From: a virus
Taxonomy: Duplodnaviria > Heunggongvirae > Uroviricota > Caudoviricetes
DNA length: 38,593 nucleotides
Direction: 5' to 3' (one strand)
Virus record (IMG/VR): IMGVR_UViG_2917865565_000005
Span: 1 to 38,593 of that record
Part shown: one piece after another, positions 2,922 through 28,495 of the stretch
Layout of the letters: each line of letters starts with the position of its first letter
Position numbering within the stretch: position 1 is the stretch's first letter
The notes under the pieces: generated by a model
Told to the model about the DNA's origin: nothing
The model's input: only the letters and a program-made list of their open reading frames with translations
Databases searched by the model: none
Position numbers and translations under genes: made by a program

Positions 2922-3860
2922 TTATTGTATTGTTAAGATGATGCTGGCTATAATTTGAATATCCTCAATGGAACACTCAAAATCCTTACTCCCACCAGAA
3001 ACAAGAATTTTGTTCTTAGGTAAACGAGTTAACTCTTTTAAAGATAACTCATTGTCAATTCCTACTAACCATTTTCCATCTCTAATTAGGTGAAATTCTT
3101 TATCACATATGACATGTTTTTCTCCATTGCTTACAAACATCAAACTGCTGGTTTCTTGCTTCGGAAGTAGACACCGATCCATGGATAAAAAACCTGACTC
3201 GACAAGCTCGCCATTGACCAAATTGAACTTATTTAAAATCACAGTGTTTTCTTTTTGTGAACCATTTGGCGTTTCGATTCCTGTAACTAGCCAGGTGAGG
3301 TCCGCTTTGGTTTCTAATGCGCATTTAATCACCCAATCCGCAGGGAAAGAATCTCGCATGTATCGTGTGGCTAATGTGCTTTTTGAAATACCAAGGTGAT
3401 CGGCTAAGGCTTGGCGGGTTTTAAACCCGTAAGCATTAACAATCCTCTCTATCGCGGCTTTTCCTCCGTTAGTAAGCTCAATGTGATTCTCAATGTGGCG
3501 CTTTAAGGATGATTGATGAGCGTTGCTGTTAAACCCCTCATGTGGGACTGTTTCATCATGTTGTTCCACATAAGGGGGGAAACTTTCTTCTGCATTGTTA
3601 GAACCAAAGGCCAGCCATTCTAGGGATGCGCCAGTTTCCATTGAACATATAACAACCCAATCAGCAGGGAAGGTATCGCGTGCATATCTATTAGCCATTG
3701 TACTTTGTGAAATACCAAGATGCTTACAGAAGGCTTGGCGTGATTTGAAACCATAGGCCTTGAGTATCCTCTCAATGACTTTTTGCCCTCCACGATTCTG
3801 CATGACCATAGCTTTCAGACTATCTTCGATATGGCGAAATGTGATTTTTTGAGTTGACAT
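2922..3860 (-). CDS. cI: CI-type immunity repressor (186 CI-like) with tandemly duplicated N-terminal HTH domain
   Basis: 312 aa; two copies of a 186-CI-like N-terminal domain ('ERILKAYGFKSRQAFCKHLGISQSTMANRYARDTFPADWVVICSMETGASLEWL' and 'ERIVNAYGFKTRQALADHLGISKSTLATRYMRDSFPADWVIKCALETKADLTWL') followed by a C-terminal domain; divergent from the apl-cII operon. Confidence 0.7.
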   Translation of the reverse strand: MSTQKITFRHIEDSLKAMVMQNRGGQKVIERILKAYGFKSRQAFCKHLGISQSTMANRYARDTFPADWVVICSMETGASLEWLAFGSNNAEESFPPYVEQHDETVPHEGFNSNAHQSSLKRHIENHIELTNGGKAAIERIVNAYGFKTRQALADHLGISKSTLATRYMRDSFPADWVIKCALETKADLTWLVTGIETPNGSQKENTVILNKFNLVNGELVESGFLSMDRCLLPKQETSSLMFVSNGEKHVICDKEFHLIRDGKWLVGIDNELSLKELTRLPKNKILVSGGSKDFECSIEDIQIIASIILTIQ

Positions 3861-7155: not shown

Positions 7156-9566
7156 GTCATGCCGATATGAGCAACTCTAGCGGCTTTAACGAGGCTGCCG
7201 CAGCATTTTCATGGAACGGCCCGAAAAAGGCCATTAACCCTTATCTGGAACCGGCGGAAGTTGCGCCGGAGTCTGCACTTTCAAACATGATCACTCTGTA
7301 CGCTGCCGATAACGAGCAGGAACAGCAGCGCCGCGAGGCACTGAGTGATCAGGTCTGGGAACGTTATTTCTTTAATGAATCCCGTGATCCTGTCCAGCGC
7401 GAAATGGAGCAGGATAAGCTCATTAGCCGGGCAAAGCTGGCGCATGAGCAGCAGCGTTTTGACCCGGACATGGTCATTCTGGCGGACGTCAGCGCCCAGC
7501 CTACCCACATCAGCAAGCCGCTGATGCAACGTATCGAATACTTCAGCAGCCTGGGCAGGCCAAAGGCTTATTCCCGCTATTTGCGTGAGACGATTAAGCC
7601 ATGTCTGGAGCGACTGGAGTATGTACGCGACAGTCAGCTATCCGCTTCTTTCCGTTTTATGGCAAGCCATCAAGGGCTTGAGGGCCTGCTGATCCTGCCT
7701 GAAATGAGTCAGGATCAGGTAAAACGCCTGTCCACCCTGGTAGCAGCGCATATGAGCATGTGTCTTGAGGCCGCTTGTGGTGATTTGTATGCCACCGATG
7801 ACGTTAAGCCAGAAGAAATCCGCAAGACATGGGAAAAGGTGGCAGCGGAAACCCTGCGTCTGGATGTTATCCCGCCTGCGTTTGAGAAACTTCGTCGGAA
7901 AAGAAACCGCCGCAAACCCGTGCCCTATGAACTCATTCCGGGTTCGCTGGCGCGTATGCTTTGCGCCGACTGGTGGTATCGGAAATTATGGAAGATGCGT
8001 AGCGAATGGCGGGAAGAGCAGTTGCGTGCTGTTTGCCTGGTCAGCAAAAAAGCATCTCCCTATGTCAGCTATGAAGCAGTGACGCATAAACGTGAGCAGC
8101 GCCGTAAGTCGCTGGAGTTTTTCCGTTCTCATGAACTGGTGAACGAAGACGGCGACACGCTGGATATGGAAGACGTGGTAAACGCCAGCAGCAGCAACCC
8201 TGCGCATCGCCGCAATGAGATGATGGCCTGTGTTAAAGGTCTGGAGCTTATCGCGGAAATGCGCGGTGACTGCGCCGTTTTCTACACCATCACCTGTCCG
8301 TCACGTTTCCATTCCACGCTCAACAACGGCAGACCCAACCCGACCTGGACAAATGCGACGGTAAGACAAAGCAGCGATTATCTGGTCGGCATGTTTGCTG
8401 CATTTCGTAAGGCGATGCACAAAGCCGGGTTGCGCTGGTATGGCGTGCGGGTGGCTGAGCCGCACCATGACGGTACTGTGCACTGGCATCTCATGTGTTT
8501 CATGCGCAAAAAAGACCGCCGCGCCATTACTGCTTTGTTGCGTAAGTTTGCCATCCGTGAAGACCGCGAGGAACTGGGCAATAACACGGGTCCACGCTTT
8601 AAGTCTGAGCTGATAAACCCGCGCAAAGGAACGCCGACAAGCTACATCGCGAAATACATCAGTAAGAACATTGACGGACGTGGTCTGGCTGGCGAGATCA
8701 GCAAGGAAACGGGTAAGTCCCTGCGTGATAACGCCGAATACGTTAATGCCTGGGCGTCTCTGCATCGTGTTCAGCAGTTCCGCTTCTTTGGTATTCCGGG
8801 GCGTCAGGCGTACCGTGAACTTCGCTTGCTGGCTGGTCAGGCGGCAAGGCAACAGGGTGACAAAAAAGCAGGTGCGCCGGTACTGGATGACCCGCGCCTT
8901 GATGCCATCCTGGCTGCCGCTGATGCTGGCTGTTTTGCCACCTACATCATGAAGCAGGGCGGCGTACTGGTTCCCCGCAAATATCACCTTATCAGAACAG
9001 CTTATGAAATTAACGAAGAGCCGACCGCTTATGGCGATCACGGTATTCGTATTTATGGCATCTGGTCACCCATTGTACAGGGCAAGATCTGCACTCATGC
9101 AATGAAATGGAAAATGGTTCGTAAGGCCGTTGACGTTCAGGAGGCGGCAGCCGACCAGGGCGCTTGCGCCCCTTGGACTCGTGGCAATAACTGTCCCCTT
9201 GCTGAAAATTTGAACCAACAGGAGAAAGATAAATCAGCTGATGGGGACACCAGAACGGACATTACCCGCATGGATGACAAGGAGTTGCACGATTACCTGC
9301 ACAGTATGAGCAAAAAAGAGCGCCGGGAACTGGCTGCAAGGTTACGCTTGGTGAAACCGAAACGGCGTAAAGACTACAAACAGCGAATTACAGATCATCA
9401 GCGACAGCAGCTCGTTTATGAGCTGAAGTCCAGAGGATTTGATGGCAGCGAGAAAGAGGTCGATTTACTCCTTCGCGGCGGCAGTATTCCGTCAGGAGCA
9501 GGCCTGCGTATCTTCTATCGGAACCAGCGTCTGCAGGAGGATGATAAATGGCGGAACCTGTATTAA
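7152..9566 (+). CDS. A: Replication initiation (rolling-circle) endonuclease gpA
   Basis: 804-aa ORF at the P2 gene A position after the small early genes; P2 A-like length; '[10 protein letters not shown]' region. Confidence 0.85.
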
Positions 9567-9720: not shown

Positions 9721-9910
9721 ATGCAGGACTATTTTTTGGAGTCTTTGAAGCTCCAGCGCATTGATTTTTTTTCTTAAGCTTGTAGCGGCTAGTGAGTGTA
9801 GTGATGAAGAGAAGGGACTGGCCCTGCAGTGGGTTTCTGAACTGACAGATGAACTCATGGCAAAAATCAGAACCCACGAATACAACCGCTCAATGGATGT
9901 CATCAGTTGA
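9721..9910 (+). CDS. N-terminal portion of a Tum-like SOS-inducible antirepressor (frame broken at a T8 run)
   Basis: ATG 9721 with SD GGAGG 9712-9716; as given it stops after 18 codons (9721..9777); removing one T from T8 (9765-9772) extends it to TGA 9908-9910. Confidence 0.4.
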
Positions 9911-9920
9911 GGTGACTTTT

Positions 9921-10154
9921 ATGCGCATTGAAATAATGATCGATAAAGAGCAGAAGATTAGCCAGTCTACCTTGGACGCCCTTGAATCCGAGCTTTACCG
10001 CAATCTGCGCCCCCTGTATCCCAAAACGGTAATTCGTATCCGTAAAGGTAGCTCTAACGGTGTGGAACTGACCGGACTGCAACTGGATGAAGAAAGAAAA
10101 CAAGTGATGAAAATTATGCAGAAGGTGTGGGAAGACGACAGCTGGCTGCATTAA
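9921..10154 (+). CDS. DinI-like domain protein (probably the C-terminal domain of the Tum-like antirepressor)
   Basis: From ATG 9921: 'MRIEIMIDKEQKISQSTLDALESELYRNLRPLYPKTVIRIRKG...KIMQKVWEDDSWLH', same length and pattern as E. coli DinI (MRIEVTI...WESADDWF) as recalled. Confidence 0.8.
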   Translation: MRIEIMIDKEQKISQSTLDALESELYRNLRPLYPKTVIRIRKGSSNGVELTGLQLDEERKQVMKIMQKVWEDDSWLH

Positions 10155-10344: not shown

Positions 10345-10755
10345 TTACAAAACATCAACAACTTCAAACTCTTCCATAATCAGCTCCATATCGTCAGAAA
10401 AGTAACCTTCACATGTAAAAAATCGTTGATGCTCTCTCTGCCAATATTCAAGACTCAAATCGCCTTCACCTTCCTTGCGAGCGAACTCGGCAGTAACATC
10501 ACAAAAACGCACCAGTCGCATCGACACCAGCCGGGTCACGCATACCGGTACATCCTGGCCGTTAAGGATGATGTTATAGCTCCCAATCCTTGGGGCAAAC
10601 TCTTCCTTCTGGTAAGAGGCATAAGAGCCGCAGGAGGCCGTTTTAATCCCTTTTTTGATAAGTGCTGCAAGCTCGTTAGCCAGTTCAGGGCTGTCGCCCA
10701 CTTGCCAGGCATTCGCGTCCGGATATTTCATCTTTAATTCATCAACCGTAACCAT
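10345..10755 (-). CDS. ASCH/PUA-like domain protein
   Basis: 136 aa; 'LIKKGIKTASCGS' resembles the ASCH GxKT motif (compare YqfB 'ILAGRKTITIRD'); call by pattern recognition only. Confidence 0.5.
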   Translation of the reverse strand: MVTVDELKMKYPDANAWQVGDSPELANELAALIKKGIKTASCGSYASYQKEEFAPRIGSYNIILNGQDVPVCVTRLVSMRLVRFCDVTAEFARKEGEGDLSLEYWQREHQRFFTCEGYFSDDMELIMEEFEVVDVL

Positions 10756-11064
10756 TACAAGTCCTTTCTGATTGTAAAATAGATAAATAGCTGAGCATTA
10801 ATTGTTCAAATATTAACAGTGATGCTCTCTTGTTAGTATCATAGTCCGTTTCTCGTTCACAGCGGACTTTCATCTTTGTAAACCCGTATGATTCGCTTTT
10901 CAGCGGTCATTCAGATACGGATTTACGCTTCCCTTGGCTGTGCATGACTATGCTGCATGAAATCGCATGATCGATTGAGGATCGTTTTTGCAGAGACCTG
11001 CTAGAACTGGCGGGCTTTTACTCATGTCATGCAGGTGCATGAAAACCACTGCATAAAGCGGGCA

Positions 11065-11083
11065 GGCGTGGCGGGGATACGAG
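11065..11083. other. cos: cos cohesive-end site (P2/186-like)
   Basis: GGCGTGGCGGGGATACGAG followed by CGCGCGCTGAC; first 13 nt match the 186 cos 19-mer and the flank matches the P2 left end (GCGCGCTGAC), both recalled from memory. Confidence 0.5.
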
Positions 11084-11163
11084 CGCGCGCTGACATCGTT
11101 AAGTATTGACATATCAGATGTTTAAATAGGAAAATTACCAAAATCCAGAAAAAAGAAAAGAAT

Positions 11164-12313
11164 ATGAAGAAGTTAACTGCGAGACAAAGAGAGATTGACG
11201 TAAAACGCTCGATAAAGTTACGACAAGGGCGTGCTAAAGTTAGAAAAAAAGGTAAATCATTTCACTATAATGTTGAATGGCGTAAGGCTAACTATTGGAT
11301 TGAAGAACAATCAAAAAATGGATTAGATGTACAATTTGTAAGTAAAAAAAAGAAAGGGTTAATTCTAACTTTACCTTCTGAAATGAATTTTTCTACACAC
11401 TACGATGTTACTGTTCAGCATATTAATGCGATTCGAATGTTATCAGAGAGAAAAGGATTGCCTAATGCAGGTTATCAATTAGCATCTGTTAATTTTTTGT
11501 AATTTGAAGAAAATATCGACATCTGCAGCTCTTGTGTTAACTGCAGAGTTATCTAAATGGGATGATGCGATTAGGCAGAGGTTGACTCCAAAAATAGACG
11601 GTTGGGATAAAAATGTTCTACGTAATTTCTATGAATTGGGGTTCTTTGATTTATTCAAAAAAAGCAGGGATATAAAATTAAATTTTAATGATGAGTATTC
11701 AAAAATAAAAGGTAAGCGATTTGTAAAATATCTTAAAGGAAAGTGTGGGGAAATTAAGAAAACAAAAGTATTAAAAGAGGAGATTATTAAATTAGTTGGT
11801 GAGTCTATTGAAAAATGGACTTTCTTACATGGGGGCCTAAGTGAGGCTATTACCAATGTTTCTCATCATGCATATCCTTCTGATTGCGGATATAAAGAAT
11901 ATGATAAGAACTGGTATCTAACAGGATCTTATCATTTAGAAAGTAAGGAATTGAAGATAGTTTTTTATGATCAGGGTGTTGGTATCCCTAAAACTTTACC
12001 TGCATCAAAAGTTTGGGAAAAGGCATTAAATGTATTAGCATCAATTCCTGTATTGGAGCGATATCGTGATGAAGCACTCTTGAAAGCTGCGGTAGAGTTG
12101 GATAGGACAAGTACAGAAGAGGGAGATCGTGGTAAAGGCCTACAGGATCTACTTGAGTTTATTAAACAAAGAGAAAATGGTTATTTATCAATCATGAGCC
12201 TTAAGGGACTTTATAAACACTCAATGAATCAAGGTAATACAAAAATAAAAACTAAGAGTTTTGCATCCCCAATCTATGGTACACTAATAACTTGGAGTGT
12301 ATCTCTTGATTGA
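11164..12313 (+). CDS. GHKL (histidine-kinase-like ATPase fold) protein with basic N-terminal region; ORFs 11164..11502 and 11504..12313 are probably one gene
   Basis: Downstream ORF has N-box 'LSEAITNVSHHAY', G1 'VFYDQGVGIP', G2 'GDRGKGLQDL', G3 'YGTLITW'; it has no ATG or SD (starts at TTG one base after the upstream stop). Removing one T from T6 (11493-11498) fuses the two in frame. Confidence 0.6.
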
Positions 12314-12327
12314 GATGGAGGTTTAAT

Positions 12328-12735
12328 ATGAAAAATCTAGAAATTAATATAGGGAAAGAGTTTTCTTCTACTCCTTCAGGACGTTTCTATTCTGATATGA
12401 CAGATAGCAGCGGCGAACAGTTTAGAGAGGAGCTTTTATGGCCTCGCTTACAATTGCTTAAAGAAAAGCAAAAGATCGACATTATTTTGGATGATGACGT
12501 TGAAGGTTATGGTTCTTCTTTCCTCGTTGAAGGTTTTGCCGGTATAGTAAAATATGGATATATGGATAAACAACAACTATTAAGTAAACTTGAGTTAATT
12601 CAGAGAGATCCTGATTTTGCTTTGTTTAAGAGAAAAATAATACAATATATTAACGAGGCAGTGTTTGATTCAAAGGTTTATGAAAGTACCAAACCTATTT
12701 ATTTGTCTAAGTTGTTGACGCAAAAAAACACGTAA
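12328..12735 (+). CDS. Small STAS-like (anti-sigma-antagonist-like) protein
   Basis: 135 aa from ATG 12328 (SD GGAGG 12317-12321); 'KIDIILDDDVEGYGSSFLVEGFAGIVK' resembles the STAS phospho-serine loop region; stop overlaps the SD of the next gene. Confidence 0.5.
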   Translation: MKNLEINIGKEFSSTPSGRFYSDMTDSSGEQFREELLWPRLQLLKEKQKIDIILDDDVEGYGSSFLVEGFAGIVKYGYMDKQQLLSKLELIQRDPDFALFKRKIIQYINEAVFDSKVYESTKPIYLSKLLTQKNT

Positions 12736-12747
12736 GGAGTAAAGCAA

Positions 12748-13392
12748 ATGGAGCCCAATTATAATTATCATTATATGATGAGTAATAATGAGCTTTATTT
12801 TAGGGCGGGTTATGATGCTCAGCAATATGGGTTTGTTTTTTCTCATTCGGCTGTTGATGATGTCGACTTGGTACATATTATCAATGGTGGTTTTTCATCT
12901 GTTGCAGAAGCTATTAGTAACTCAGGAAACACCACACTTTCTGATGGGATTATACTTGCATTAGCAGGTGCGTTGAGTGCTTTTTTCTTTAATTTGATTC
13001 AAAAAGGAATTGACGCTAAGGCAAAACGTCTCACCAAATCTGGTGAAGCAATGTTATCCTTGATAAATGAATTGGAGGATATTGCAGTACGTTATTGGGT
13101 CAGAGGGCACGATTCATCTTGTGCTGATAATGAAAGCAATATTTGTGATGAGATTAATATCAAAGCCATGTTAATGACCTTGGATAAAAATATTAGGTTT
13201 ATGGTTGATAATTTACCGTTAAAAAACAAGTCTTTAAATAAAAATAAGCTGGAGAAATTTTCTTCTGATATTTATGATTTGGCATCTGGTGAAGATTTCG
13301 AAGCAGAGGTTAGGCCTCCCAATAAAACAAAGGCCTTTGCTATATCGAAAAAATGTAGTGAAGCAAAAGCCATCATTCTTGGTTTGATTTAA
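12748..13392 (+). CDS. Hypothetical protein with one hydrophobic (possible transmembrane) segment
   Basis: 214 aa; SD AAGGAG 12734-12739; hydrophobic stretch 'IILALAGALSAFFFNLI'; stop codon overlaps the portal gene stop on the other strand. Confidence 0.55.
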   Translation: MEPNYNYHYMMSNNELYFRAGYDAQQYGFVFSHSAVDDVDLVHIINGGFSSVAEAISNSGNTTLSDGIILALAGALSAFFFNLIQKGIDAKAKRLTKSGEAMLSLINELEDIAVRYWVRGHDSSCADNESNICDEINIKAMLMTLDKNIRFMVDNLPLKNKSLNKNKLEKFSSDIYDLASGEDFEAEVRPPNKTKAFAISKKCSEAKAIILGLI

Positions 13393-14417
13393 AAACGGTA
13401 ATCCTCAAAGTTAATTACTGTTATGTTTAACCAAATATTTAGCTCTGTTATTCTTTTCTGAAGAATTTCTAATTCATTTTTTACGAATACTTTGGCAGCT
13501 TTCTCCACATCCCCAAACCCCCCAACATTATTAGGCATTATCCCCATCATTTGCGGCGGCACTCGGTGTGCTGCCATCATGTCATCGCGGCTGACATTTT
13601 TGATATTCAGAAATTCATCCTTCGCCGCGACTTCTGACAGAGGAATGATCTGAAGCCCGTCCTTTTTGCCGTTAGGCGAGTACATAAACAGATTGCGGAA
13701 GTTGCCAGGGCCTTTGGCGCTTTTCATCGCATTGCGGAGGTTGTTCACATCCTCCTGGTTTTGCGCGGCATCGGTCATGTACATGATAAAGCCCGCATGG
13801 CTGCCGTTAATGTAATACTTGCGACGGAACAGCGTGGCGGACTCGTTGAGCAGGGCTGACGGAATGGCAGAAAGATAACCGGGCAGGCCGTAGATCTCCT
13901 GATTAATATCCGGTTCCATCAGGTGAAAAATGCTGCCTTTCGTGAACTGATACGGTTGCGTGGTCATGCCGTATTGCACAAACCAGTAGGTATCCAGATC
14001 TAATCCGCGTCGGGTGTATTTTGCCAGCGCAGGCTCAAGGGCGATAACTTCACCGAATCGGTTCGTGCGTTTCTCCAGGTAGGCGTTACCAAATACCAGA
14101 TAGTCCTGCACAAAACGTGAAAAAGCCTGTTGGCTGAGCAGCGGGTGAGGGATGTAGGTGCTGGTCAAAATGTTGCATTTCACCGCAATCGGTGAGCTGT
14201 GATGCACGGCGGCGCGGAAGGTTCGCGCCAGTCCGTCGAAACTTACAGGCGGCTCATACCAGCGATCCATCTGTACGCATTCCACATAGTCCAGCAGTTC
14301 ACGGCGGTCCAGAACAGGAACGGGATCGCCAAAGCTGAATGCTTCGGCTGAAGTTTGGCTTTTATGCTTGAGCTGATTCGTCGCCGCAGCGCGGTTCTTC
14401 TTACTCTTTCCCATCAA
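13389..14417 (-). CDS. Q: Capsid portal protein gpQ
   Basis: 342 aa, P2 Q-like length, paired with the terminase gene as in P2 (Q-P leftward). Confidence 0.9.
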   Translation of the reverse strand: MMGKSKKNRAAATNQLKHKSQTSAEAFSFGDPVPVLDRRELLDYVECVQMDRWYEPPVSFDGLARTFRAAVHHSSPIAVKCNILTSTYIPHPLLSQQAFSRFVQDYLVFGNAYLEKRTNRFGEVIALEPALAKYTRRGLDLDTYWFVQYGMTTQPYQFTKGSIFHLMEPDINQEIYGLPGYLSAIPSALLNESATLFRRKYYINGSHAGFIMYMTDAAQNQEDVNNLRNAMKSAKGPGNFRNLFMYSPNGKKDGLQIIPLSEVAAKDEFLNIKNVSRDDMMAAHRVPPQMMGIMPNNVGGFGDVEKAAKVFVKNELEILQKRITELNIWLNITVINFEDYRF

Positions 14418-21312: not shown

Positions 21313-21751
21313 ATTGCAGAAGGTGGACGACTGGCTGAGTGCCTTGCTGGCGAATCTGGAGCCAGCCGCAAGAAGCCTCATGATGCGCCAGCTGGCGCAG
21401 GAACTGCGCCGGACACAGCAGCAGAATATCAGGATGCAGCGCAATCCTGATGGCAGCAGTTATGAACCGCGCAGGGTAACAGCACGCAGCAAGAAGGGGC
21501 GCATCAAACGTCAGATGTTTACAAAGCTGCGCACCACAAAATACCTGAAAACTGCCGCCAGCGCCGATTCTGCCAGCGTACAGTTTGAAGGTAAGGTGCA
21601 GCGCATTGCCCGCGTTCATCACTACGGCCTGCGCGATCGCGTCAGTCGTAAGGGACCGGAGGTCCGTTACGCAGAGCGTCGTTTGTTAGGTATTAATGAT
21701 GACGTAGAATCCTTAACCCACGATGTATTATTGCGCTGGCTATCTAATTGA
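21305..21751 (+). CDS. S: Tail completion / virion morphogenesis protein gpS
   Basis: 148 aa, P2 S-like size and position. Confidence 0.8.
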   Translation: MAELQKVDDWLSALLANLEPAARSLMMRQLAQELRRTQQQNIRMQRNPDGSSYEPRRVTARSKKGRIKRQMFTKLRTTKYLKTAASADSASVQFEGKVQRIARVHHYGLRDRVSRKGPEVRYAERRLLGINDDVESLTHDVLLRWLSN

Positions 21752-22636
21752 TTGTTTACCAATCGATGGAGTTAAGTTTTTAGGCCTGAGGGCGAGAAAT
21801 GGTTCATAGTCTATCCATGAGTCCCAGTTAATTAATCCATCATCGAATCCTATATATTTCATTAATACTAAAGGTAAAAGTAAATTTAGATTTGAATAAT
21901 AATCACTTAATTTAATGATACTGCTTGGATCATCTTTCTTAATGTATCCAATATAATTTCCATTGTGGAATAGAGAGTTTCGAAGCGTGCAATAGTGAAT
22001 CACGTTTCTTTGTGGTACAGGGTTGCCTTCTTTAGATACATTAAAACCATAATCTTTTAAAACCTTTGTAATTATTTGTGGTGTATAACTAGATGTCGAC
22101 TCGTTATCGATATATCTGCACAGGGATTCTAATGCTGAGAAATTAAGGAAGTATTTAACATCTACATAGTCCATTCTTTCCCTAAAAGAAAATATAGACT
22201 TATAGAACGCAGTTCTAAAAGGGTTTTGATGAGAATTAATATTTCTATGAAGTTTATCCATCGCAAGCTCAATGAACGCTGAGCGACTCTTTTCAGAGAA
22301 GCAATCTTCAACAATTATTCCTAGTGATGACTTTCTTTTTGACTTCAATTTTAGTGGGAAATTATTATCTAACTTTTCAGGTGTTTCATGTTTCTCTAGG
22401 AAGTTTGATATGATTACATTTTTTTGTGTTCAATGAAACTTAAAACAGCTGAAAGATCATAAATTATTTGAGTGACGGTGTTTTCAGAAGCATGTGCGGG
22501 AGAGAAAAATCCACTTAATACATATTCGCTTCCATCGCATTTATTCTCTTTTAGTTCCTTAAAGGATTTGTAACGAGGTATCAGTGTCCCTCCTTTAAAA
22601 GTAAATTCTTTCGTGAAGCAATATCCATAGATACCG
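21740..22636 (-). pseudogene. AT-rich accessory gene inserted between S and V; hypothetical protein with HEPN-like R-x4-H motif; two ORFs separated at a T7 run
   Basis: Upstream piece from ATG 22636 (SD AAGGAG); downstream piece (21740..22348) has only a TTG start and no SD, but its frame is open back to the upstream stop; adding one base at T7 22419-22425 joins them (about 299 aa). 'CTLRNSLFHNGNY' contains R-N-x3-H. Confidence 0.4.
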
Positions 22637-22674
22637 ATTTGTGTCATCTGTAACTCCTTTGCGCGGATAAACAT

Positions 22675-22692
22675 TGTGTAGTAAGTCATACA
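22675..22692. promoter_or_regulatory. TGT-N12-ACA dyad upstream of gene V (candidate late-promoter activator site)
   Basis: TGTgtagtaagtcatACA; only about 57 bp from the V ATG (22741), closer than at O and FI, so weaker. Confidence 0.35.
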
Positions 22693-22740
22693 TTTCTGAC
22701 TCAATGTCCCACAATATATGTTTGTGCAAATATCGTCGAC

Positions 22741-23319
22741 ATGAATGCACAACTAACCGAAATCATGCGCCTTATCACCAATCTGATCCGCACAGGTGTA
22801 GTCACCGAAGTGGACCGGGAAAACTGGCTGTGTCGGGTGAAAACGGGCGACCTCGAAACCAACTGGATTAACTGGCTGACACTGCGCGCGGGCAAATCGC
22901 GCACCTGGTGGAAACCGTCTGTGGGCGAGCAGGTTGTGCTGTTCAGCCTGGGTGGCAATCTGGAAACCGCGTTTGCCCTGCCTGCTGTCTACTCAAATCA
23001 GTTTCCACCACCTTCAGACTCTGAGGACGGCAACGTGGTTGAGTACCCGGACGGTGGCTGGTTTGAATACGAACCCGCGACCGGGCGCTGGTATGTCAGG
23101 GGCATCAAATCTATGGTCATTGAGGCCGTCGACAACATCACCCTGAAAACCAGTGAGTTTGTGCTGGAGGCTGACCGCACGCGTATTAACAGCGAAGTGG
23201 TGATCAATGGTGGTGTTACCCAGAGTGGCGGTGCAATGAGTTCTAACGGGATCGTGGTTAATGCGCATCAGCATACTGGCGTCCTGAAAGGCGGCGATAC
23301 CACCGGAGGCCCGGTATGA
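22741..23319 (+). CDS. V: Baseplate assembly / spike protein gpV
   Basis: 192 aa; N-terminus and 'WWKPSVGEQVVLFSLGG' align to P2 V as recalled. Confidence 0.85.
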   Translation: MNAQLTEIMRLITNLIRTGVVTEVDRENWLCRVKTGDLETNWINWLTLRAGKSRTWWKPSVGEQVVLFSLGGNLETAFALPAVYSNQFPPPSDSEDGNVVEYPDGGWFEYEPATGRWYVRGIKSMVIEAVDNITLKTSEFVLEADRTRINSEVVINGGVTQSGGAMSSNGIVVNAHQHTGVLKGGDTTGGPV

Positions 23320-27410: not shown

Positions 27411-28401
27411 TTATTGGCTGGCTTTTGAGAGCAATATACTTTGTATGTGTGAAAATAATCGGTCCATGATTCTGGAAGAAATTGTACTGCTTAATAAGTA
27501 ACATATAGCAAAGCTGATTATTACTGTACCTACCAATATGAACGGCCATGACAACATCTTATTTAGGTAAGTGGAAATGTATAATATAAATAGACCATGT
27601 AACAGATATATACTAAGACTATTTTTTCCAAACCGCTCTAAAATTACACAGGTGGGTTTTAGCTGCATAAGAGCTAATACAAAAGCCGGAACCGCTGCGT
27701 AGTTGACTACTTTGTATAACATAAGTACAACTATAGATTTATCAAAATAAGAGAATGGAAAAGCGCCGTAGAGAAATATGGTAGGTGCAAGTATCGATAA
27801 AATCACTAATGCAATAACTGCTGAGAATAAAATGAGGTATATCGTATTTTTGTCGTGCCTTATACGTAATAAATTATTCCGATAAAATAACGCTCCTATA
27901 ATGAAGTAGGGTAGAAAATTAATTGTCCTCATAATGGATAGAGTCTGCGAACTGAAATCAATGAATTGAAATGCGAAGCTTATAAGTAAAGAAAGACAAA
28001 GAGGGTAACGGAAGGTGAATAGAACAGAAGCAATTATTTGCCAGAAAAAAAAGGCTTAAAAGATACCACATTATCCAATAAGGCGCGCCAATCTTAAGAT
28101 AACCAGAAATACTTCCTGTCAGCAAGAAGTTGATAAATTCATAAATAAAATTAAAAACAATGAATGGAACAAGAATATGTTTGCTTAATTTGTATATGTC
28201 AAGATTGCTACATCCCTTGCTAAGAAAACCAGAAATTAATACAAAGGCGGGCATGTGAAATGTGTAAATGAAATCATATATGTATTTCACTTGTTCATGT
28301 TCTACGCCACCGCCAAGTATGTGCGCCATAACCACCAGGAAAATTAACGCGCCTTTGAGCGTATCGATAGTGTTATCACGATTATCGATCTGTTGTGCCA
28401 C
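27411..28401 (-). pseudogene. Acyltransferase family 3 (O-antigen O-acetyltransferase-like) membrane protein; frame broken at an A8 run
   Basis: N-terminal motif 'NRDNTIDTLKGALIFLVVMAHIL' and 'FHMPAFVLISGFL'; multiple TM helices; two ORFs (27958..28407 and 27411..27932) join if A8 (28045-28052) is A7; GTG start 28401 with SD AAGGA (TTG 28407 in the ORF track). Confidence 0.7.
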
Positions 28402-28495
28402 GGACAATCCTTAAGTGTATATAGTTAGTTTTCTGTTGAAGACAGTATCCAGGGTAACGGATTCAATTAAAAGTATTAAATGAGAATCTGATAAT

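Follow-up and report, generated by a model that had tools for sequence, protein, structure and literature searches.

A Conserved Kinase, STAS-Like, and Membrane Protein Triad in the Cargo Slot of a P2-Like Prophage: A Possible Phosphorylation-Gated Anti-Phage Module

Organization of the K-S-M Locus

We analyzed the window, that is, the whole stretch of 38,593 nucleotides of the IMG/VR virus record IMGVR_UViG_2917865565_000005 (Caudoviricetes), and found that a P2-like prophage carries an AT-rich operon of three genes as a cassette at 11164–13392. The three genes encode a predicted serine kinase of the GHKL type (gene 1, K), a STAS-like protein of the DUF4325 family (gene 2, S), and a predicted inner-membrane protein (gene 3, M), and their features are collected in table 1. 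The GC content of 11001–13500 was 0.32–0.36, compared with 0.51–0.60 (about 0.55) in the flanking phage genes, and four open reading frames (ORFs) were present on the plus strand (11164–11502, 11504–12313, 12328–12735, and 12748–13392), the first two of which make up gene 1. A preliminary description of this DNA, made from the letters alone, had called the block AT-rich and had listed its ORFs and motifs, all of which were recovered in place.

The phage backbone around the cassette is P2-like, and its portal-to-capsid region shared 96% identity with Escherichia phage Cartapus and with many P2-like phages of Klebsiella. The gpA gene ends at 9566 and is followed by genes for a DinI-like protein and an ASCH-domain protein. 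Farther downstream, the cos cohesive-end core GGCGTGGCGGGGATACGAG with its flanks showed full identity to the corresponding region of the P2-like E1114 fragment cloned by Rousset et al., and it resembled the cos sequence GGCGAGGCGGGGAAAGCAC of P4 and P2. The position of the cassette between cos and the convergent portal gene, which the preliminary description had recognized, places it inside the gpA–gpQ slot. Rousset et al. define gpA–cos–gpQ as the P2 defense hotspot, in agreement with the earlier statement that the A-to-Q variable region is a site of anti-phage cargo.

Table 1. Features of the K-S-M Cassette and Its Immediate Surroundings in the Window
Feature	Position	Strand	Basis
Gene 1 (K), 382-aa predicted serine kinase	11164..12313	+	homologues, AF2 model, one-T deletion
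K N-terminal basic region, aa 1-54, two predicted helices, 17 Lys/Arg	11164..11325	+	AF2, alignment
T6 run splitting gene 1 by +1 insertion	11493..11498	+	T5 in all other copies
K middle alpha/beta domain, aa 55-181, invariant motif ISTSAALVLTAELSKWDD	11326..11707	+	AF2 secondary structure
K GHKL (Bergerat) domain, aa 183-382	11711..12310	+	motifs, fold, alignment
N-box EAITNVSHH	11843-11869	+	translation
G1 DQGVG	11969-11983	+	translation
G2 DRGKGL	12125-12142	+	translation
G3 TLITWS	12281-12298	+	translation
Gene-2 Shine-Dalgarno GGAGG	12318-12322	+	sequence
Gene 2 (S), 135-aa DUF4325 STAS-like protein, conserved C-terminal extension	12328..12735	+	Pfam, family alignment
S STAS loop KIDIILDDDVEGYGSSFLVEGFAGI	12472-12546	+	translation
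Ser63-Ser64, candidate phospho-acceptor in Y-G-S-S-F-L-x-E	12514..12519	+	alignment
Gene 3 (M), 214-aa predicted single-pass inner-membrane protein	12748..13392	+	hydropathy, family
M transmembrane helix, aa 67-84, GIILALAGALSAFFFNLI	12946..12999	+	hydropathy
M cytoplasmic four-helix bundle, aa 85-214	13000..13389	+	predicted
cos cohesive-end core GGCGTGGCGGGGATACGAG	11065..11083	.	E1114 cos identity
Sigma-70-like promoter candidate (TTGACA, 18 nt, GAAAAT)	11106..11135	+	consensus scan, 10/12 matches
Portal gene	13389-14417	minus	convergent with cassette

Conservation and Distribution of the Triad

Using hidden Markov models (HMMs) built from the three family alignments, we observed that K, S, and M were adjacent, in the same order, and on the same strand in 27/27 loci with enough sequence; L025, a 994-bp contig, was outside this count. 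Such same-order co-occurrence is far beyond chance. The hosts of these triads span the Gamma-, Beta-, and Deltaproteobacteria and include Cycloclasticus, Methylotenera, Nitrosomonas, Colwellia, Vibrio, Shewanella, Alteromonas, Pseudidiomarina, Desulfocapsaceae, and Desulfuromusa, and relatives of gene 3 form at least 220 clusters at 50% identity, from Alpha- to Deltaproteobacteria, in phages, and on plasmids. In the comparison between the window and a Klebsiella copy of the cassette, the synonymous differences (pS) were saturated at 0.70–0.80, and the nonsynonymous differences (pN) were 0.10, 0.14, and 0.19 for genes 1, 2, and 3, giving pN/pS ratios of 0.14, 0.18, and 0.28, respectively. The low pN against a saturated pS indicated purifying selection on all three genes, with gene 3 evolving fastest.

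More distant triads showed the same layout, with the kinase followed by a DUF4325 protein that bears GSSF/YLEE and then by a small protein whose N-terminus holds a transmembrane (TM) helix. They were observed in Marinobacter phage AS1 (gp41-40-39), where the genes lie next to the cro/cI region and the kinase was matched by hhalign at 99.2% over the full K length, and on plasmids of Novosphingobium, Vibrio (beside MazEF), and Acinetobacter (beside RelE); the published annotation of Francisella phage KIRK points to a further apparent case.

The cassette is also mobile among prophages. It was intact in near-identical P2-like prophages from human-gut metagenomes, and it was found as well in a Klebsiella lambdoid prophage (L008 6001–8796 and L009) with Rep_O/P, YdaS/T, and DUF977 genes. 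In L008 the cassette is immediately followed by a 128-aa gene with a weak match to the P2-type Phage_portal family, and the cassette apparently moved between unrelated prophage types along with a piece of the P2 flank. No match was obtained when the cassette was searched by megablast against phages and complete Escherichia coli genomes, and only blastn found a 64%-identical variant, which occupies the same gpA–gpQ slot in 15 of the 5426 complete E. coli genomes and is annotated as "ATP-binding protein," "DUF4325," and "hypothetical." Among 133 neighboring ORFs from 20 loci, we identified six integrases, five AbiEii/PARIS/Septu-type ATPases, two type I restriction-modification sets, Mrr, and ZorD.

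A Divergent GHKL Kinase, a DUF4325 Protein, and a Membrane Protein

The AlphaFold2 (AF2) model of K (pLDDT 79, pTM 0.77) comprised three parts, corresponding to residues 1–54, 55–181, and 183–382, and was interpreted together with an alignment of 45 gene-1 homologues (A1). In the C-terminal part, E227 and N231 of the N-box, D269, G271, and G273 of G1, and D321, R322, G323, and G325 of G2 were invariant in all 45 homologues, and the fold was similar to those of solved anti-sigma kinases, with SpoIIAB and RsbW as the closest structural matches; the complete Bergerat set that had been read from the translation is thus well founded. Curated profiles matched K only marginally: Pfam HATPase_c_2 gave 14–15 bits against a cutoff of 27.4 and was matched, only below threshold, by 33/45 members, and the NCBIfam RsbW and SpoIIAB models gave E values of about 0.02, far under their cutoffs. 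These scores indicate that K represents a divergent GHKL family, and we consider it a predicted serine kinase of the RsbW/SpoIIAB type. Among the PHROGs, gene 1 fell into phrog_3364, a function-unknown group.

The two other parts of K are less readily assigned. Across the family, M1, K2, K3, D12, R20, and W45 hardly vary, and the basic N-terminus is a possible nucleic-acid-binding or sensor part. A Lys/Arg-rich region of about 200 aa had been described here, and a basic N-terminus is indeed present, but it covers only about 54 aa (with 17 Lys/Arg), and the next 125 aa or so form a folded alpha/beta domain. This middle domain has a beta-beta-alpha-beta-alpha secondary structure (AF2), carries the ISTSAA motif, and is by eye colinear with the STAS domain of the kinase VapK; its position and secondary-structure pattern are those of a STAS-like domain, an assignment that we regard as unconfirmed.

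Gene 1 is split in the window at a run of six T residues, where three other independent DNA copies have five. Its homologues are intact and about 380 aa long; one of them (P0001), 99% identical to gene 1, reads VNFCNLKK across the junction, and deletion of one T from the window copy restores an intact ORF of 382 aa, all of which bears out the earlier proposal of one gene across the run. An equivalent defect occurs in the Old-like gene of the same prophage (1106–2753, minus), which is split in two ORFs and becomes a single 548-aa ORF when one base is taken off a 6-mer run at 1649–1654. Two identical 5-to-6 homopolymer defects suggest an assembly error rather than decay, and the T6 run would then be an error of homopolymer length. 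Programmed frameshifting at the run was considered and rejected, since the heptamer T_TTT_TTG would direct a -1 shift into a dead frame; the T5 run elsewhere and the same 5-to-6 defect in a second gene of the window also speak against it.

The S protein of the window matched Pfam DUF4325 (PF14213) with an E value of 1.9e-4 and 21.5 bits, just under the cutoff of 23, and the domain was matched by 42/42 aligned relatives (E <= 0.01, best 1.3e-9), many of which were already annotated with PF14213; the homologues are named "STAS-like domain-containing protein" or DUF4325 at NCBI. The STAS-like character ascribed to gene 2 therefore stands. The motif Y61-G62-S63-S64-F65-L66-x-E68 was invariant in the 42 S sequences, including Ser63-Ser64 in the loop where candidate phospho-acceptor serines had been pointed out, and the serine pair was kept in the distant triads as GSSFLEE, PSSFLEE, or GSSYLEE. 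The conserved Ser/Thr at the start of helix 2, which is the phospho-acceptor in SpoIIAA, CapS, and VapS, is present in S; a weak hhalign alignment set S63 on VapS S48, and the SSF pattern equals DS-S54-F of CapS. In the PHROGs, gene 2 matched only positions 339–437 of the 441 positions of phrog_5816, a function-unknown group, so that in some phages the DUF4325 domain apparently closes a far longer protein at its C-terminus, in which it may be fused to its partner. Searches of the PDB sequences with the gene-1 and gene-2 family profiles returned nothing meaningful, the VapS and CapS entries apparently being absent from the set or too distant.

A word-indexed search recovered only 13 close relatives of M, and a full HMMER scan recovered 220 cluster representatives (50% identity) of 150–280 aa, among which the conserved part corresponds to residues 45–214. 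Exactly one hydrophobic helix was found by hydropathy in 134/149 representatives, so that the single helix noted earlier for gene 3 is a property of the family. The helix contains a conserved small-xxx-small pattern (A71, G74, A75, and A78) together with F81 and N82. Within 15 residues of the helix, Lys plus Arg averaged 0.66 on the N-terminal side versus 3.66 on the C-terminal side, the latter being richer in 98.5% of members, which predicts an N-out/C-in topology. The predicted cytoplasmic bundle retains E110, Y116, W117, E135, K139, D177, G181, F184, E185, R189, and C203. The periplasmic N-terminus, on the other hand, varies in length (about 0–120 aa), and AS1, Vibrio, Novosphingobium, and many metagenomic members have almost none of it; a role for it as a periplasmic sensor was considered and is weakened, as the region is wanting in so many of the family. 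Gene 3 had no Pfam hit. It had also been described as translationally coupled to gene 2, and its Shine-Dalgarno sequence AAGGAG does overlap the gene-2 stop; this tight spacing agrees with coupling, but the two ORFs are 12 nt apart and do not overlap.

Proposed Mechanism and Alternative Explanations

Kinase/STAS control of anti-phage functions was described by Chambers et al. (EMBO J 2026, PMC13373217), who reported that CapK (HTH-STAS-GHKL; HTH, helix-turn-helix) phosphorylates CapS (STAS-wHTH; wHTH, winged HTH) on a conserved serine upon single-stranded DNA (ssDNA) and that this pair controls the transcription of CBASS, Bub, and Thoeris operons. In the three-gene vapKSC operon, which protects against phage Bas42, VapK (STAS-GHKL) is proposed to phosphorylate S48 of VapS, a STAS domain with a C-terminal helix, and this phosphorylation frees the PIN toxin VapC (PMC13373217). 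Using protein sequences from that paper, we found that VapS belongs to DUF4325 (E 2.7e-17), that VapC matches PIN (E 4.7e-7), and that the gene-1 profile matches the VapK GHKL domain, with the G1–G2 insert included, at an hhalign E value of 9e-6.

We tentatively proposed that K-S-M is a phosphorylation-gated, toxin-antitoxin-like anti-phage module in which the switch of VapKSC gates a membrane effector, a reading that we consider quite possible, if short of probable, and the likeliest of those weighed here. S and the validated antitoxin VapS belong to one Pfam family, and S, as far as the alignments indicate, has its Ser-Ser pair at the position of VapS S48 and CapS S54; the three genes appear to form an obligate trio whose kinase, STAS protein, and effector order is that of vapKSC. 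M is predicted to be placed where it can meet cytoplasmic partners, with an N-out/C-in topology, a conserved cytoplasmic surface, and a TM packing motif, and the distant triads, the purifying selection, the hotspot context (shared by the 64%-identical E. coli variant), the defense-gene neighbors, and the plasmid copies beside MazEF and RelE point in the same direction. By analogy with VapKSC, we infer that in an uninfected lysogen S would be bound to the cytoplasmic bundle of M, keeping M inert. An infection-associated cue, possibly nucleic acid sensed by the N-terminal parts of K, would activate the kinase; K would phosphorylate S on Ser63 or Ser64, and phosphorylated S would leave M. M might then self-associate through its small-xxx-small TM helix and compromise the membrane, so that the infection would be aborted. 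As no phosphatase is encoded, the switch would be one-way. Phage sensing, a partner switch, and a membrane-acting effector, the three components supposed in the preliminary description, would fit all of the evidence.

Several observations weigh against this proposal. PADLOC v2 has no model for K, S, or M and gave no match, and several chromosomal copies of the triad lie among housekeeping genes only. The direct profile comparison of S with VapS was not significant (E 0.19), and neither were the hhalign comparisons of the K middle domain with the VapK N-terminal region and DUF4325; profile and fold searches with this domain gave no STAS match. K shows no obvious equivalent of the aromatic residue that stacks on ssDNA in VapK (F54) and CapK (W68); by eye, in a nonsignificant alignment, the position is held by the K/I in "LKxISTS," and the trigger may thus differ. 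A fold search with M returned generic four-helix bundles only and no enzymatic fold, and no function is readable from such a fold. Finally, if the extra T in gene 1 is real, the kinase gene is broken in the window copy.

If that frameshift is real, the window copy might be a dead remnant that does not work here, whatever the family does elsewhere. The extra T would be in keeping with such decay, as would the splitting of two more AT-rich cargo genes, the Old-like gene and an acyltransferase gene (27411–28407), but the breaks in gene 1 and the Old-like gene are both mended by a one-base deletion in a 6-mer homopolymer, which is the signature of assembly error, and the rest of the cassette is 98–99% identical to intact copies. 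Judging from the sequence, a +1 slip on UUU_U would also restore the exact wild-type protein. We consider a dead remnant very unlikely. The wiring could also run the opposite way, as in a classical partner switch: K would keep its target (M, or some protein of the host or phage) inactive; S in its unphosphorylated form would compete for K and free the target; K would phosphorylate S to sideline it; and, instead of kinase activation, the trigger would be falling ATP or a sudden supply of new S. SpoIIAB and RsbW, structurally the closest to K, work in this way, and RsbW-type switches, as in the RsbW/RsbV system, respond to the ATP level, which suits this arrangement. Against it stand the lack of an encoded PP2C phosphatase and sigma factor, and the consideration that a broken K would be lethal if M were toxic, yet K is split in the window copy, possibly as an artefact. 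Moreover, in VapKSC, the closest characterized relative, it is the STAS protein that binds the toxin, and the kinase does not hold it (PMC13373217). We judge the opposite wiring unlikely.

It is likewise improbable, in our view, that M serves as a membrane anchor or sensor that recruits or controls K and S, with the output on another host or phage protein, or that the module serves at the inner membrane in non-abortive superinfection exclusion or in lysogenic conversion. Family members can do without the periplasmic N-terminus, which speaks against a periplasmic sensor; the cassette encodes no other output protein; and RsbW-type kinases are normally specific for their STAS partner.

A more far-reaching form of the phosphorylation-gated proposal, which we hold with greater reserve, is that K-S-M might be a widespread unnamed anti-phage system in which phosphorylation of a STAS-like antitoxin unleashes a new membrane executioner built of one TM helix and a cytoplasmic four-helix bundle, the GHKL kinase and DUF4325 pair being a general, portable trigger that can be coupled to unrelated effectors (a PIN nuclease or a membrane protein). 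On the bacterial side, such a system would parallel, in its logic but no further, the kinase-gated four-helix-bundle killers of which MLKL is an example. Should the phosphorylation-gated model itself be correct, the kinase/STAS phospho-switch of VapKSC, for which one paper is so far the source, would prove to be a modular sensor that serves two or more unrelated effectors. The model would also assign to an uncharacterized family of membrane proteins the role of an effector under phospho-switch control, and it would give a function to the "hypothetical + hypothetical + DUF4325" set that recurs in the P2 hotspot of E. coli and Klebsiella prophages and that current defense-annotation tools miss. 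At 2.2 kb the module is compact and self-contained, and the hypothesis is open to direct test.

Other Features of the Prophage

Upstream of gene 1, the sigma-70-like promoter candidate lies 29 nt 5' of the ATG and is weakly supported, promoter-like sites in the region being no commoner than in shuffled sequence. Downstream, the gene-3 stop (TAA, plus) and the portal stop overlap within TTAA at 13389–13392, and no terminator-like site was found between the two stops. The DinI-like gene (9849–10154, plus) and the ASCH-domain gene (10345–10755, minus) lie between gpA and cos, so that cos separates them from the cassette; both "DUF3850/ASCH" and "DinI" appear repeatedly among the P2 hotspot arrangements listed by Rousset et al.

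Other AT-rich cargo was observed elsewhere in the window. The Old-like nuclease gene is AT-rich, lies between the integrase and the CI repressor, matched the PADLOC Old family with E values of 1e-146 and 2e-50, and is a second defense cargo gene of the prophage. The Acyl_transf_3 acyltransferase gene (minus) follows the tail-fibre assembly gene within an AT-rich island; it is broken into two ORFs that lie in different frames and is a possible O-antigen-modifying lysogenic-conversion gene. A further AT-rich island at 21740–22752 (minus; GC 0.33–0.41) within the structural-gene region contains two ORFs of about 201 and 111 aa, which gave no Pfam or PADLOC family match; it may be another cargo slot. 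The CI-repressor ORF (2922–3860, minus) encodes 312 aa with two Phage_CI_repr HTH stretches, compared with 189 aa in the near-identical metagenomic prophages, and could represent an N-terminal duplication or an over-extended ORF.

Comparison with Known Systems

The K-S-M triad itself was neither described nor named in the literature searched, in line with the preliminary description, which had recognized no named system. Among the occupants of the P2 hotspot, the triad shares the gpA–cos–gpQ slot with old and tin of P2 and with the "hp+hp+hp" system (3HP) of Rousset et al., which likewise consists of three genes without clear domains; the sequences of Old, Tin, and 3HP are unrelated to the triad. 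Identity with the validated Rst_3HP (E1114 proteins of about 336, 349, and 226 aa) was rejected, as by eye the proteins of Table S2A showed no similarity to genes 1–3 and PADLOC v2 gave no match. Rousset et al. do tabulate arrangements of the type "hypothetical + hypothetical + DUF4325 (+DinI)" in P2 loci, and no record of such arrangements being assayed was found in the portions of the paper considered here. Their Table S1 (P4 hotspot) also includes system 69, a two-gene "HATPase_c, DUF4325" set with nine occurrences in P4-satellite hotspots, whose kinase has a similar basic N-terminus; the 100 aa compared showed no significant similarity to gene 1. GHKL and DUF4325 pairs may form a wider modular superfamily.

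The classical modules SpoIIAB-SpoIIAA-SpoIIE and RsbW-RsbV-RsbU provide the best structural matches of the kinase and share the logic of a kinase with a single-domain STAS substrate. Unlike in these modules, S belongs to the divergent DUF4325 family, and the genes are prophage and plasmid cargo rather than part of a chromosomal stress or sporulation regulon. Neither a PP2C phosphatase nor a sigma factor is encoded in the cassette or between cos and the portal gene, and the cassette is thus not a classical partner switch. With CapK-CapS, the triad shares a GHKL serine kinase (predicted, in the case of K) and a STAS partner with a conserved serine ("DSS54F" in CapS, resembling "GSS64F" in S). 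However, CapS includes a wHTH domain for DNA binding and acts as repressor of the immune operon downstream of it, whereas S is 135 aa of DUF4325 only, with no HTH; CapK has an N-terminal HTH, whereas none was detected in gene 1. As the next gene is the convergent portal, there is no operon downstream of the cassette, and together with the missing wHTH this sets the cassette apart from CapK-CapS.

The closest resemblance is to VapKSC, with which the triad shares a three-gene operon in the order kinase, STAS protein, and effector; a kinase whose SpoIIAB-like GHKL domain is preceded by an extra N-terminal domain; a small DUF4325 middle protein that has a C-terminal extension and, where helix 2 begins, a conserved Ser; the lack of an encoded phosphatase; and mobile, defense-associated contexts. 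In contrast to VapKSC, the third gene encodes a single-pass membrane protein with a four-helix bundle rather than a PIN nuclease, K is about 90 aa longer with a Lys/Arg-rich N-terminus, and its middle domain has no detectable sequence similarity to the VapK STAS domain. Having no PIN domain, the cassette is not a member of VapKSC, and we consider that it resembles VapKSC in its logic. The preliminary description had not recognized the combination of the three genes as any named defense system; this holds for the triad as such, but kinase/STAS control of an anti-phage toxin already has an experimental precedent in VapKSC and CapK/CapS (PMC13373217), and what differs in K-S-M is the membrane protein in place of the nuclease.

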